A DNA stretch of 18,161 nt, taken from the UHGV virus genome UHGV-0095938. One strand, written 5' to 3'. Below, piece after piece: positions 4,660-6,467 of this stretch. Each line of letters opens with the position of its first letter. Within the stretch, counting starts at the first letter, position 1. Origin of the DNA: a virus. The notes below the pieces were generated by a model, which was given only the letters and a program-made list of their open reading frames with translations, did no database searches and had not been told where the DNA came from. The translations under genes were made by a program, and so were the position numbers.

Positions 4660-5132
4660 ACCTCAATCTCTCTGACCGTTCCGCCAGCTTCTTTGAATTT
4701 TGCAATCAGGTTGTCAGCCTTATGCTCGAACTGACCATAACCAGCGCCCGGCAGTGAAGCCCAGATATTGCTGCAACGGTCGATAGCCTGACGAATATCA
4801 CCGCGGTCAATCATCGGTAAAGCGCCACGCTCCTTAATCTGCTGCAGCGCAACAGCGTCCTGGCTTTTGGGAGAGAAGTCTTTCAGGCCAAGCTGCTTAC
4901 GGTAAGCATCCCACCAACGGGAAAGAAGCTGGTAACGTCCGGCTGCTGTTGATTTGAGTTTGGGGTTTAGCGTGACAAGCTTGCGAGGGTGATCGGAGTA
5001 ATCAGTGAATAGCTCTCCGCCAACAATGACGTCATAACCATGATTTCTGGTTTTCTGTCGTCCGTTATCAGTTCCCTCTGACCACGCCAGCATATCGAGG
5101 AACGCCTTACGTTGATTATTGATTTCCACCAT
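4656..5132 (-). CDS. R: Endolysin R (lambda-type lytic transglycosylase)
   Basis: 158 aa; sequence [39 protein letters not shown]... is near-identical to lambda R as recalled. Confidence 0.9.
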
Positions 5133-5439
5133 CTTCTACTCCGGATTTTTTAGCAGCGAAGCGTTTGATAAGCGAACCAATCGAGTCAGTACCGATGTAG
5201 CCGATGAACACGCTCGTTATATAAGCGAGATTGCTACTTAGTCCGGCGAAGTCGAGAAGGTCACGAATGAACCAGGCGATAATGGCGCACATCGTTGCGT
5301 CGATTACTGTTTTTGTAAACGCACCGCCATTATATCTGCCGCGAAGGTACGCCATTGCAAACGCAAGGATTGCCCCGATGCCTTGTTCCTTTGCCGCGAG
5401 AAGGGCGGCTAACAGGTCATGTTTTTCTGGCATCTTCAT
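5116..5439 (-). CDS. S: Holin S with dual-start motif
   Basis: 107 aa beginning MKMPEK (Met1-Lys2-Met3, the lambda S107/S105 arrangement). Near-identical to lambda S as recalled; overlaps R by 17 nt. Confidence 0.9.
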
Positions 5440-5685
5440 GTCTTAGCCCCAATAAGGGGATTTGCTCTATTTAATTAGGAATAAGGTCGATTACTGATAG
5501 AACAAATCCAGGCTACTGTGTTTAGTAATCAGATTTGTTCGTGACCGATATGCACGGGCAAAACGGCAGGAGGTTGTTAGCGCAACCTCATGCCGCCCGC
5601 TTTCACGAAGATCATGTGTAGAAGGCCGCAGCGTAACTATCACTGATGAATTCAGGACAGCCAGTGGCTACGACTCAGTTTGGGT

Positions 5686-5811
5686 TGTGGCGGCCGGAAT
5701 CGAACCGGCTTCCATCGGTGCGCTGCCGATTGCAGTACGCGCGGCGGTCAGCTACATGACTAGTATTTTCACTGTCGCCTATCTGCTAGCTCGCCATTGA
5801 GCTTCACCACA
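5686..5811 (-). other. tRNA-like element (possible interrupted or degenerate tRNA)
   Basis: Minus strand has a canonical T-arm GCCGG-TTCGATT-CCGGC, then 3' acceptor CGCCACA. An anticodon-arm-like ATCGG-CAGCGCA-CCGAT precedes the T-arm. A matching 5' acceptor TGTGGTG plus a D-arm-like GCTC-AATGGC-GAGC lie about 58 nt further upstream. Lacks U33 and an encoded CCA; total span is too long for a normal tRNA. Confidence 0.3.
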
Positions 5812-5948
5812 ACGATAAGAGCACTGCTCGGCACTTTTCACCAATTCCGCGAGGTCTGCGGGTTCAATGCTCTTACCTGTTATGCAAACAAAAAAAGCCA
5901 CCGTTGCAACTTAAGAGTCACTAACGGCAGCTTACCCTCTAATTATGG

Positions 5949-6467
5949 CTAAATGGCTAATTGCATGTCAAGGTTTTTAACAGCAACATGCTTAACTTTC
6001 TCAACACGTTTACGCATTTTGAAAGCATTTTGCATTGGCTGGTATAAAACAAATAATGACGCTTTCAGGATGTCGTCAATTTCGTTTCTACAGGTTGCCA
6101 GTGAAGGTTTTCTCCATCCCTCACCACCACGTCCACACATCTTGCGTGGCTTTGCAGTCTCGTGATAGTAGGATGCAATTGCTCGCTTAGATGAACCATG
6201 AGCGTAGTAGCTGAGGAGGATGCCAAAGGCTTTCTTGTCAATGTACATGACGGAATCGACGACCTGAGAAATCAACATTCCATCATCATCATTGCACATT
6301 GGTCTTGTCATAACTCTTCCTGGCTCTACGCTCTCCATGAACTTCGCTATTACGCTGCTCATACGCTTTTCCAGACGACCTGAATAAACCCATGCGCCCC
6401 ACAGTTCAAGCCAGCCATTCAGCCACTCGTGCTGTTCTTTGGTGAGGTTTAGTTCTCTTATGCTCAT
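5949..6467 (-). CDS. Late-gene regulator in the Q position (putative antiterminator, family unresolved)
   Basis: 172-aa ORF between ninH and the S-proximal intergenic region, overlapping ninH by ATGA. Assignment is by position only; it does not resemble lambda Q as I recall it. Confidence 0.45.
   Translation of the reverse strand: MSIRELNLTKEQHEWLNGWLELWGAWVYSGRLEKRMSSVIAKFMESVEPGRVMTRPMCNDDDGMLISQVVDSVMYIDKKAFGILLSYYAHGSSKRAIASYYHETAKPRKMCGRGGEGWRKPSLATCRNEIDDILKASLFVLYQPMQNAFKMRKRVEKVKHVAVKNLDMQLAI

Follow-up and report, generated by a model that had tools for sequence, protein, structure and literature searches.

Between the antiterminator Q gene and the holin S gene of a phage DNA of 18,161 nt (the whole stretch analyzed, referred to below as the window), the minus strand carries a sequence that looks like a tRNA but is too long to be one. 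The question raised by this locus is whether it is a decayed or interrupted tRNA gene, the tRNA fragment of an integration core site, both of which had been proposed in the first-pass annotation, or an RNA in its own right. The data presented here suggest that it is a widespread, unannotated, five-armed tRNA-shaped RNA of many enterobacterial phages, which is probably cut from phage transcripts and would then act independently. Its parts are as follows.

5684..5813, minus strand: the tRNA-like RNA as a whole, termed 'type A' cargo; its five-arm cloverleaf has a 9-bp closing helix; the 7-bp acceptor register corresponds to 5811..5686
5811..5805, minus strand: 5′ acceptor strand TGTGGTG, from the sequence
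5788..5803, minus strand: D arm AGCTC-AATGGC-GAGCT, loop with GG, from the fold; nearly invariant among the family
5732..5786, minus strand: extra long arm with a 4-bp base GCAG/CTGC, an internal loop and a distal stem whose apical loop measures about 20 nt
5742..5736, minus strand: 3′ side GCGCGTA of the asymmetric internal loop of the long arm (5′ side ATA(G)); invariant in the alignment
5759..5764, minus strand: ACTAGT, a hexamer complementary to itself, at the tip of the long arm; putative site of dimerisation by kissing loops
5714..5730, minus strand: hairpin ATCGG-CAGCGCA-CCGAT (5 bp, 7 nt), the sole variation being C/T at the first loop position
5693..5709, minus strand: canonical T arm GCCGG-TTCGATT-CCGGC, from sequence and fold; the stem covaries (C-G, U-A, A-U)
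5692..5686, minus strand: 3′ acceptor strand CGCCACA, from the sequence

The T arm and the 3′ acceptor strand were present as had been described, and so were the 5-bp/7-nt hairpin lacking U33 (5730..5714, with A at that position) and, further upstream, the matching 5′ acceptor strand and D-arm-like hairpin (5811..5805 and 5803..5788). The D arm and the hairpin are indeed separated by about 58 nt, and this stretch forms an arm of its own (5786..5732). The element occupies positions 5811..5686 (126 nt), and its helix can be extended to 5813..5684. The minimum-free-energy structure calculated with RNAfold is a five-arm cloverleaf (−50.5 kcal/mol, z = −2.7; 2 of 200 shuffled sequences were equally stable), in which an acceptor-type helix of 7–9 bp is accompanied by the D arm, the canonical T arm, the 17-nt hairpin and the 55-nt extra arm, which confirms the over-long structure. 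No ORF of 50 or more amino acids was found across the element in the window; some database records do place annotated proteins over it.

The tRNA-like character also held, and resides in the acceptor helix of 7 bp, the canonical T arm with the loop consensus GTTCGAYTC and the D loop with GG, with the elbow formed by the D and T loops; these are the features that give a tRNA its L-shape and by which tRNA-handling enzymes recognize it. In other respects the element differs from tRNAs. It is 126–131 nt long in different copies (70–95 nt for a tRNA), it has the 55-nt arm on top of the 17-nt hairpin where a tRNA has four arms, or five with a variable arm, positions 8–9 are AA with A in place of U8, the discriminator position is A or C between copies, and a 3′ CCA is not encoded, its place being taken by ACCC in the window and by different flanks elsewhere. 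The 7-nt loop reads YAGCGCA in all 51 distinct sequences, with A33 rather than U33 and C rather than a purine at position 37, and is non-decoding. The reading of CAGCGCA as an anticodon arm is one of two defensible alignments, the other making the hairpin equivalent to a class-II variable arm.

ARAGORN in default, intron and tmRNA modes made no call at the element, and Rfam at gathering thresholds found no match in the window. In E-value mode nothing beyond a partial match of the T arm to tmRNA models, at 16 bits, was obtained for the window copy, and its tRNA-clan matches did not exceed 16.2 bits (the RF00005 threshold is 29 bits). ARAGORN run at 60–80% threshold reported a 'tRNA-Ala with intron' (38-nt intron at 80%) among obvious junk calls. 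Silence of the tRNA finders had been named as an argument against a tRNA-like element, and with default settings they were indeed silent, but a homologue from Pantoea phage PdC23 was accepted by the Rfam tRNA model with 37.4 bits and aligned as a class-II tRNA, and covariation in the region proved to be strong.

Pair statistics were obtained from an alignment of 31 distinct homologous sequences with 31 base pairs. Changes on both sides that preserved pairing were seen in 11 of the 31 pairs, against 1–3 pairs in controls slid by 1–3 columns, and 97.4% of the pair cells were paired as compared with 31–45% after the same sliding of partners. The compensatory pairs are located in the acceptor helix, in the T stem and, within the long arm, in the base and the distal stem. 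The YAGCGCA hairpin (bar C/T at the first loop position), the internal loop and, nearly so, the D arm are invariant among 51 distinct sequences. A covariance model built from the 31 homologues scored members of the family at 130–153 bits (the sequences used to train it, with the window copy, are among those scored) and genuine tRNAs at 14–30 bits, so that the family is a discrete one. It is very likely, in our judgment, that these sequences represent a functional structured RNA family.

The apical loop of the long arm contains a 6-nt palindrome at the same aligned position in 51 of 51 distinct sequences. Six versions of it were found (ACUAGU, UCGCGA, UCUAGA, GCUAGC, UCUGGA and ACCGGU). Control offsets were palindromic in 0–5 of the 51 sequences, with one offset reaching 18. 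A palindrome that covaries is the signature of a kissing-loop dimer, and from this pattern we would give dimerisation of the RNA an even chance; another cause for the palindrome is conceivable.

Copies ranging from near-identical to about 75% identical were found in more than 116 IMG/VR contigs, in 92–112 GenBank phage records and in 175 of 5426 complete E. coli genomes; E. coli 55989 has a copy. The carriers are lambdoid and P22-like phages, Skatevirus siphoviruses, and phages or prophages of Pantoea, Klebsiella and Enterobacter. A scan of species-representative genomes gave three matches only, one of which is a 9.7-kb contig binned as Cellvibrionaceae; its ORF layout is the same as that of the window, and it is therefore uninformative on host range. 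None of the copies was correctly annotated: one was labelled tRNA-Ser and a few lay beneath CDS calls, the erroneous labels including 'tRNA-Ser', 'polyubiquitin-A' and 'hypothetical protein'. We found no description of the element in the literature on sequence motifs, on tRNA-like RNAs of lambdoid phages, on anti-defence tRNA-like RNAs or on RNase III and the N leader.

The genomic settings of these copies are diverse. The strand of the element always agrees with that of the surrounding transcription unit, or else the element has a unit of its own, as in Skateviruses, where a promoter (TTGACA-17-TAGATT) and a terminator surround it with no ORF in between. Real tRNA genes lie downstream of it on the same strand in gmqsjt-1, and in L021 and L016 a single array comprises tRNA-Arg/Tyr/Thr, two module-1 units (see below) and tRNA-Met. 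The next gene begins anywhere from 18 nt to about 245 nt away, and the 3′ flanks are not the same in all contexts. The neighbouring genes change with every context, and no linked partner protein gene was found.

The element of the window lies in the late leader, the landmarks of which are listed here.

5949..6467, minus strand: antiterminator Q gene (Pfam PF06530, E = 7.6e-26)
5942..5971, minus strand: late promoter pR′, TTGACA-18-CATAAT, 11/12 matches; overlaps the 3′ end of Q
5890..5931, minus strand: terminator tR′ of the late leader, with stem GCTGCCGTT/AACGGTGGC and then T7, from reading of the sequence; its homologue is annotated as tR′ in Sf6 and HK75
5814..5877, minus strand: 'module 1', a three-way-junction hairpin made of a 13-bp stem GGTAAGAGCATTG/CAGTGCTCTTATC with two small hairpin caps (fold z = −3.1)
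5861..5847 and 5844..5828, minus strand: cap hairpins of module 1, from the fold
5116..5439, minus strand: holin S gene (Pfam PF05106, E = 1.8e-30), followed by the lysozyme and Rz genes (Rz, PF03245)

Upstream of the element, the minus strand has no promoter-like site other than pR′, which is annotated at the homologous position in Sf6 and HK75. The terminator tR′ was not picked up by a simple terminator scan because its loop exceeds 8 nt. Since the element is downstream of tR′, its transcription is expected only upon Q antitermination. In Sf6, BTP1 and many other phages exactly this slot between Q and S is occupied by tRNA-Asn and tRNA-Thr(UGU), which bears out the suggestion that it accommodates tRNA genes as cargo.

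Module 1 adjoins the tRNA-like helix directly, with zero spacer. A 16-mer from it is present in more than 120 viral contigs, and its stem covaries between subfamilies (GGAGAGAGTATTT/AAGTACTCTCTTC, AGGTAATGGCACT/AGTGCCATTACCT and GGAAATCGCTTTG/CAAAGCGATCCCC). The interior is hypervariable (30–138 nt), and cargo lengths obtained by the first automatic boundary detection are lower bounds. The upstream flank CATAAC (5884..5879) can alternatively pair with GTTGTG (5813..5808); this pairing competes with the acceptor helix and is preferred in the predicted fold of one relative. No second socket or module-1 copy was found within the window.

The element invariably rests on long helices, and in another antiterminated leader it was found on a different one. 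In 23 sampled copies it takes the place of the stem interior between nutL and N, and the helix there is continuous over 17–22 bp (fold z = −6.1); in BIS08P22 and relatives the element is 18 nt upstream of the N gene. Lambda has the identical outer stem, GCTTTGGGGTGTG.../...CACACCACCAAAGC, with a different interior, and the covariance model did not match the interior of the lambda N leader. We take the lambda stem to be an RNase III site; Steege in 1987, Kameyama in 1991 and Wilson in 2002 are said to have dealt with it. In 74 sampled copies of the window type a covarying 13-bp hairpin stands beside a 9-bp helix, about 22 bp when stacked. The flanking helix in the window is accordingly a composite of 9 bp and the stacked 13-bp hairpin stem with a strand exit, not a continuous duplex, and is therefore possibly no RNase III substrate.

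The explanation that we favour, with moderate confidence, is that the window contains one representative of a non-coding phage RNA that is conserved and moves horizontally, and that this RNA is a five-armed tRNA mimic that is processed and acts in trans. The prophage would transcribe it within the late leader, from pR′ past tR′, only when Q antiterminates. RNase III, cutting at the flanking helices, and RNase P or 3′ trimming at the acceptor would then free the RNA from the transcript; we infer these cleavages from helix length, tRNA likeness and, by analogy, lambda. Excision as a discrete RNA is predicted at slightly better than even chances. The product, of about 130 nt, would accumulate as a stable RNA, pair with a second copy through the palindromic loop and act in trans on a host factor that recognizes the tRNA shape.

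The element might alternatively act purely in cis, as a processing or folding element. RNase P and RNase III, recruited by the tRNA shape and the flanking helices, would separate the downstream mRNA from its leader (qut/tR′ or nutL) and, much as in tRNA punctuation, adjust how stable S or N mRNA is or how well it is translated, whereas the RNA cut out would itself be functionless. Its position within the 5′ leaders of two antiterminated operons, after tR′ and upstream of N, is consistent with such a role, as is the outer pairing of the N-leader fold, which spans the N start region; the equivalent stem of lambda presumably regulates N translation through RNase III. However, the promoter-to-terminator unit of Skateviruses has no downstream ORF on which it could act, the distance to the next gene is not fixed (18 nt to about 245 nt), and recruitment of RNase P requires neither an invariant YAGCGCA loop nor an invariant internal loop nor a covarying palindromic loop. 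We regard the cis-acting role as unlikely.

A chargeable but non-decoding tRNA-like RNA, cut by RNase P, provided with CCA and aminoacylated, could serve a non-ribosomal process or titrate a synthetase, with SerRS or LeuRS as candidates if the invariant hairpin is a class-II variable arm. The elbow and the 7-bp acceptor are intact, the PdC23 copy is a class-II tRNA by the Rfam model (37.4 bits against a threshold of 29), ARAGORN at relaxed threshold gives the same picture, and some copies begin with GGTGAGGTG, which we believe to be the 5′ end of E. coli tRNA-Ser(GCU). This reading is nevertheless very improbable: CCA is not encoded, the discriminator is A or C, A replaces U8 and the window copy stays below 16.2 bits with the tRNA model. 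Moreover, in the N-leader copies the helix continues for 17–22 bp, and there is therefore no free 3′ end unless it is trimmed.

It is more improbable still that the sequence functions at the DNA level, as an attachment or recombination core or as a boundary sequence for the exchange of mosaic modules, with no role for the RNA. In CUS-3 the flanks are annotated as boundary sequences bsq3 and bsq4, the order CACAAC-stem ... stem-GTTGTG ... CACAAC is reminiscent of recombination sites in which the core is duplicated, and homing endonuclease genes lie near the element in HK629, PdC23 and BIS08P22. A DNA site would not account for five helices whose intra-strand pairing is preserved by compensatory changes, for an orientation that always follows transcription or for the dedicated promoter and terminator in Skateviruses. 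As for the integration core site proposed earlier, both halves of the tRNA-like structure are present, the element is situated between Q and S and not at a prophage end, and it also occurs inside Skatevirus and PdC23 genomes, at a long distance from any such end next to an integrase. Similarity to a host tRNA was sought with the 3′ 65 nt, which at E values up to 10 matched no tRNA gene in 5426 E. coli genomes; the matches, in 175 of these genomes, were all full copies of the element. The conserved flanks may help cassettes to move by homologous recombination, which is compatible with the RNA being functional.

A decayed or interrupted tRNA gene (pseudogene or intron-bearing) can practically be dismissed: despite tRNA-derived D and T arms and acceptor helix, tRNA genes in the same slot of sister phages and the intron modelled by ARAGORN at 80% threshold, the aberrant parts are the most conserved ones, U33 and a purine at position 37 are missing in every copy, Rfam gives no match in the window at gathering thresholds, we know of no protein-dependent tRNA splicing in enterobacteria and the extra arm, maintained by compensatory changes, is presumably not a group I intron; the deviating parts are invariant or covarying in at least 51 distinct sequences from unrelated phages, which is not expected of a pseudogene.

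The trans-acting RNA may be viewed against known phage and bacterial RNAs. With canonical tRNA (RF00005) it shares the 7-bp acceptor, the GG of the D loop, the GTTCGAYTC T arm with a closing pair of the G53-C61 type, and the location, since it occupies a tRNA slot and in relatives stands in tRNA arrays; its length of 126–131 nt, its additional, fifth arm (55 nt), the YAGCGCA loop (A33, C37), A8 and the lack of CCA set it apart. The stable RNAs species 1 and 2 of T4 (rnaC and rnaD) are likewise phage-encoded, about 120–140 nt long and in line with tRNA genes. In rnaC, as in the element, long non-tRNA hairpins are enclosed by a T arm and a terminal helix, which in rnaC is short and of the acceptor type. 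Maturation of rnaC is by tRNA-processing enzymes; it has no D arm and no invariant hairpin. The covariance model matched neither rnaC nor rnaD, and there is no sequence similarity.

YrlA and tmRNA also combine a tRNA elbow and T arm with a non-decoding tRNA-like module or domain. In YrlA both RNA ends are located in a stem that takes the place of the anticodon stem, the acceptor being closed, whereas in the present element they are located in the acceptor helix; tmRNA is related to it in Rfam only by the 16-bit partial T-arm match. The element is phage-borne and adjoins tRNA genes, which recalls self-assembling phage-associated RNAs such as phi29 pRNA and ROOL/GOLLD. The interacting loops of pRNA are non-palindromic and pair hand in hand, however, and ROOL/GOLLD are 500–800 nt long and unrelated in sequence. 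In kissing loops of the HIV-1 DIS type a self-complementary hexamer in a hairpin loop is kept by covariation, as it is here, but the DIS loop has 9 nt as against about 18–20 nt in the element, for which a dimer is predicted.

Many lambdoid prophages house the tRNA mimic inside the very stem of the lambda N leader, and module 1 plus the closing helix of the window have a similar stacked length; the differences are that the interiors are unrelated and that the helix in the window is composite and belongs to the late rather than the early-left leader. We tentatively suggest, while considering it rather doubtful, that enterobacterial phages have a previously unrecognised RNA cassette system in which conserved helical sockets carry interchangeable structured RNAs that are excised and act as self-assembling (dimeric or oligomeric) tRNA mimics, blocking host tRNA-directed immunity or tRNA-handling enzymes. 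Two sockets are envisaged, one being the stem of the lambda N leader and the other the module-1 hairpin, in which CACAAC/GTTGTG/CACAAC would serve as a pairing switch. As cargos they would take true tRNAs, the five-arm type A mimic, some 30 further types and a type B scaffold, the central domain of which is hypervariable. On this view, what fills the lambda N leader would itself be a cargo of the system, either degenerate or alternative. The modular layout of sockets and cargos could be a natural scaffold for the expression of structured RNAs.

The family offers a comparative handle on the function of stable tRNA-like RNAs of the T4 type and on the structured interior of the lambda N leader. 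In several hundred phage and prophage genomes the element is unannotated or misannotated, which the covariance model would mend.

With regard to the possible target, phage tRNA genes have lately been recast as counter-defence cargo, and the non-decoding mimic, in which the non-tRNA parts are under strong purifying selection and a self-pairing loop covaries, shares their slot. Cells attacked by the tRNA nuclease P2 Old are rescued by a phage-encoded tRNA-Thr(UGU) (PMC12445682); as cited in that article, tRNA-Tyr counters PtuAB and tRNA-Lys counters AriB (PARIS). The anti-defence tRNAs resemble the element in occupying the same allelic slot (Sf6, BTP1) on the same strand as patchy accessory cargo, but they replace the cleaved host tRNA in decoding. 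The element cannot decode and therefore would be at most a decoy or inhibitor. A decoy directed against a tRNA-targeting defence or stress nuclease is a guess, and one that we consider rather improbable: it was prompted solely by the other occupants of the slot, which in sister phages are tRNAs of a type known to protect phages against nucleases of this sort. If true, it would widen the idea of counter-defence from replacing cleaved tRNAs to mimicking them. As a separate observation, the stem of the invariant hairpin contains paired CGG/CCG, a CNG motif of the type preferred by P2 Old, shifted by one pair and with C37 in place of A37, which is evidence neither way.

The window was found to be a lambdoid/P22-like prophage with its late region on the minus strand, and its tRNA-like element lies immediately downstream of the leader terminator tR'. 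The following features, all on the minus strand, were located.

6467..5949, Q antiterminator gene (Pfam Phage_antitermQ)
5971..5942, late promoter pR', TTGACA-18-CATAAT, overlapping the Q end; annotated in Sf6 and HK75
5931..5890, short leader terminator tR', after pR'; annotated so in Sf6 and HK75
5877..5814, module 1, a 13-bp stem with two small capping hairpins (upstream flank 5879..5884)
5879..5884, 5808..5813 and 5684..5689, three-copy motif CATAAC / GTTGTG / CACAAC; the first copy is CACAAC elsewhere
5813..5805 with 5692..5684, closing helix, 9 bp (RNAfold)
5786..5732, long (fifth) arm (RNAfold)
5764..5759, palindrome ACUAGU
within the five-arm cloverleaf, hairpin ATCGG-CAGCGCA-CCGAT, D arm and T arm (RNAfold)
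5439..5116, holin S gene, followed by lysozyme and Rz genes

Because the element (the tRNA mimic) is downstream of tR', the only expected source of its RNA in the window is the Q-antiterminated late transcript, and this copy should be transcribed only within it. E. coli strain 44 matches the 208 bases around it exactly (100%), and phages HK75 and vB_EcoP-611R6 match them at 97-98.6% identity.

All features named in the first-pass annotation were found at 5811..5686, and the 58 bases that it left as surplus fold into a fifth arm. The RNAfold minimum-free-energy structure is a five-arm cloverleaf (z-score -2.7). Standard ARAGORN and Rfam searches made no call on the window element. ARAGORN at an 80% threshold with introns, a setting that made junk calls as well, modelled it as a tRNA that has a long variable arm and a 38-nt insert.

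Analysis of homologues showed that the window element is not debris but part of a conserved RNA family. It has copies in Skatevirus Salmonella phages (95% identity), gmqsjt-1 and ST1UNAM (about 80%), Pantoea phage PdC23 (79%), and Klebsiella and Enterobacter prophages. When IMG/VR was searched with a 17-mer taken from the invariant hairpin, at least 116 true copies came up, with 51 distinct core sequences among the copies listed. The element is present in 175 of 5426 complete E. coli genomes and is annotated in none of these copies. RNAalifold recovered the same five helices from 31 distinct sequences, with both-sided changes in 11 of 31 base pairs. In the alignment 97.4% of pair cells were paired, compared to 31-45% with slid partners, and none of 500 shuffles matched the observed covariation score. 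Many unrelated sequences make up the long arm's distal stem, and all of them pair. The D arm, the long-arm internal loop (5' AAUAG, 3' GCGCGUAA), the 17-nt hairpin including its loop, and the linker GGAAG are invariant. The covariance model R1, built from 31 distinct homologues including the window copy, scored the family at 130-153 bits, real tRNAs at 14-30 bits, and the sister type B RNAs at about 21 bits. The architecture is well supported; the family was not found in Rfam 15 or the searchable literature and is apparently undescribed. Another carrier, JAUVQU010000080.1, is a 9.7-kb contig labelled "Cellvibrionaceae MAG". Its ORF sizes and order match the Q-S-R region of the window; it probably comes from an enterobacterial phage and was mis-binned, and it lends no support to a wider host range.

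The contexts point to an RNA product that probably acts in trans. Skateviruses provide the unit with a dedicated promoter (TTGACA-17-TAGATT) and close it with a terminator hairpin and T-rich tail; it has no ORF and runs antisense to the tail genes on either side. An exclusively cis role is less likely, because the spacing to the next gene varies (18 nt to about 245 nt) and the neighbours differ in each context. In gmqsjt-1 two real tRNAs follow the mimic on the same strand. Two other loci, L016 and L021, each have a tRNA-Arg/Tyr/Thr ... Met array that includes one or two module-1/cargo units, again on the same strand, and in L021 the first module 1 starts about 5 nt past tRNA-Thr. T4 rnaC and rnaD similarly come after tRNA genes, and the end of rnaC likewise combines a T arm with a short terminal helix; R1 matched neither of them, nor the lambda leader. 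The arrays of L016, L021, L088 and L098 comprise Arg-UCU or Asn, Tyr-GUA, Thr-UGU, ... Met, a set resembling tRNAs known to counter tRNA-cleaving defences.

The description of the element as tRNA-like was justified: it has the canonical D-loop GG, T-loop GTTCGAYTC and G-C closing pair. The equivalent of the anticodon arm is ambiguous between two arms. R1 aligned the anticodon arm of a phage tRNA-Asn with the invariant hairpin, which would turn the long arm into an insertion at position 26. The PdC23 copy scores 37.4 bits with the Rfam tRNA model, enough to be accepted; this alignment treats its long arm as an anticodon arm carrying a 45-nt insert and its invariant hairpin as a class-II variable arm. 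A33 and C37, present in all copies, render the anticodon loop unusable under both alignments. Since, in addition, U8 is absent and CCA is not encoded, the element was not classed as a tRNA. A chargeable non-decoding tRNA has a low probability. The earlier proposal of a decayed or interrupted tRNA is contradicted by the conservation pattern, which speaks against both a pseudogene and an intron-containing tRNA; that of an integration core site fails on location and on the absence of a matching host tRNA gene in the 5426 E. coli genomes; and a DNA recombination module is contradicted by intra-strand compensatory changes and strand consistency.

The tip loop of the long arm (~18 nt) contains a self-complementary hexamer at one aligned position in 51/51 distinct sequences. 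Besides ACUAGU, the versions UCGCGA, UCUAGA, GCUAGC, UCUGGA and ACCGGU occur; positions 2 (C) and 5 (G) never change, and the outer and central pairs covary. Palindromic hexamers are almost absent at neighbouring offsets. As the hexamer is unable to fold on itself, the simplest reading is that it would mediate loop-loop pairing of two molecules. GCGC of the invariant 7-nt loop and GCGCG of the invariant internal loop could also pair, in cis or in trans; both are invariant, so covariation is uninformative here.

The slot was correctly recognized as cargo-prone: in Sf6, BTP1 and many P22-like phages it is occupied by tRNA-Asn and tRNA-Thr(UGU), with exchange boundaries right after the tR' U-tract and at the downstream tRNA 3' end. 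A phage tRNA-Thr(UGU) protects cells against the tRNA-cleaving P2 Old protein, and phage tRNAs generally suppress tRNA nucleases (PMC12445682). Given a non-decoding mimic in a tRNA slot, with invariant loops and a putatively self-pairing tip, the context is most economically read as that of a decoy or inhibitor, which would act on some tRNA-recognising host factor.

Module 1 abuts the tRNA-like helix with zero spacer. Its 16-mer AACAGGTAAGAGCATT occurs in >120 IMG/VR viral contigs; its stem covaries between subfamilies, and its interior is hypervariable (30-138 nt), sometimes with T-arm-like hairpins, e.g. GAGTTCGACTCTC. The order of parts is module 1, GTTGTGGTG, cargo, CRCCACAAC. The tRNA mimic is one among many cargos, which include a true tRNA-Arg(UCU) in locus L023 and some 30 further sequence clusters. 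The same socket carries type B cargo in CUS-3 (L003 590-800), HK629 (L004), ep3 (L010 1572-1718) and EC.P3 (L011). In 27 distinct units its 5' hairpin NNNNN-GGCTGA-NNNNN and 3' hairpin NNNNN-AGWTCAGCA-NNNNN are conserved, with covarying stems, and the central domain (32-162 nt) is wholly different between phages; it looks like a tRNA-shaped scaffold displaying a hypervariable domain. In Skate-like phages a 13-bp hairpin, CTTAACATCCAGC ... GCTGGATGTTAAG, lies between cargo and terminator (L005 2636-2725; equivalent in L007 and L009) and is kept irrespective of the preceding cargo.

GTTGTG can pair with either CACAAC flank, upstream or downstream of module 1, giving two mutually exclusive conformers. 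The arrangement might serve as a switch during co-transcriptional folding, or be left over from cassette insertion. The three-copy arrangement was also considered in L135, L153, L193 and lambda (L241). N-leader sockets have the analogous order CCAAAGCATTTC, GGAATGTTTTGG, CCAAAGCATTTC, and the corresponding place in lambda is taken by a small CAAAGC/GCTTTG hairpin.

In 23 sampled copies the tRNA mimic is enclosed by the nutL-N gene stem, with recognisable boxA and boxB and a lambda N reading frame downstream. The helix is 17-22 bp long (fold z = -6.1). The window has instead a composite of 9 bp and a stacked 13 bp, of comparable helical length. Lambda has an identical outer stem between nutL and N, where RNase III cuts the N leader, but its interior differs from the tRNA mimic. 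The interior is replaceable while the outer stem and N start are conserved (L132, L136, L152, L159, BIS08P22 L242; lambda L241 340-545), which suggests that the sequence inside lambda's stem may itself be one cargo among several alternatives.

Database records misannotate the element or cover only part of it: a 58-nt "tRNA-Ser" in vB_CECAV_048 (L005 2587-2644), a "polyubiquitin-A" CDS in vB_EcoP-611R6/683R2 (H31/H160), and "hypothetical protein" CDSs in Skate, INT55 and PhiR5_2. The element is kept in every listed genome-reduced derivative of Salmonella phage seszw (MZ375295-MZ375355 and OL9647xx; 36.5-45.9 kb, CiPGr study, PMC9825161), which hints only weakly that it cannot be lost freely there; whether the region was targeted is not stated. 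The conserved flanks may aid cassette exchange. HNH/homing endonuclease genes recur beside RNA and tRNA cassettes (L004 647-1159; L006 552-932, 3965-4504 and 4821 onward; L242 1799-2299; T4 L240 1754-2419, segB) and may help the cassettes move.
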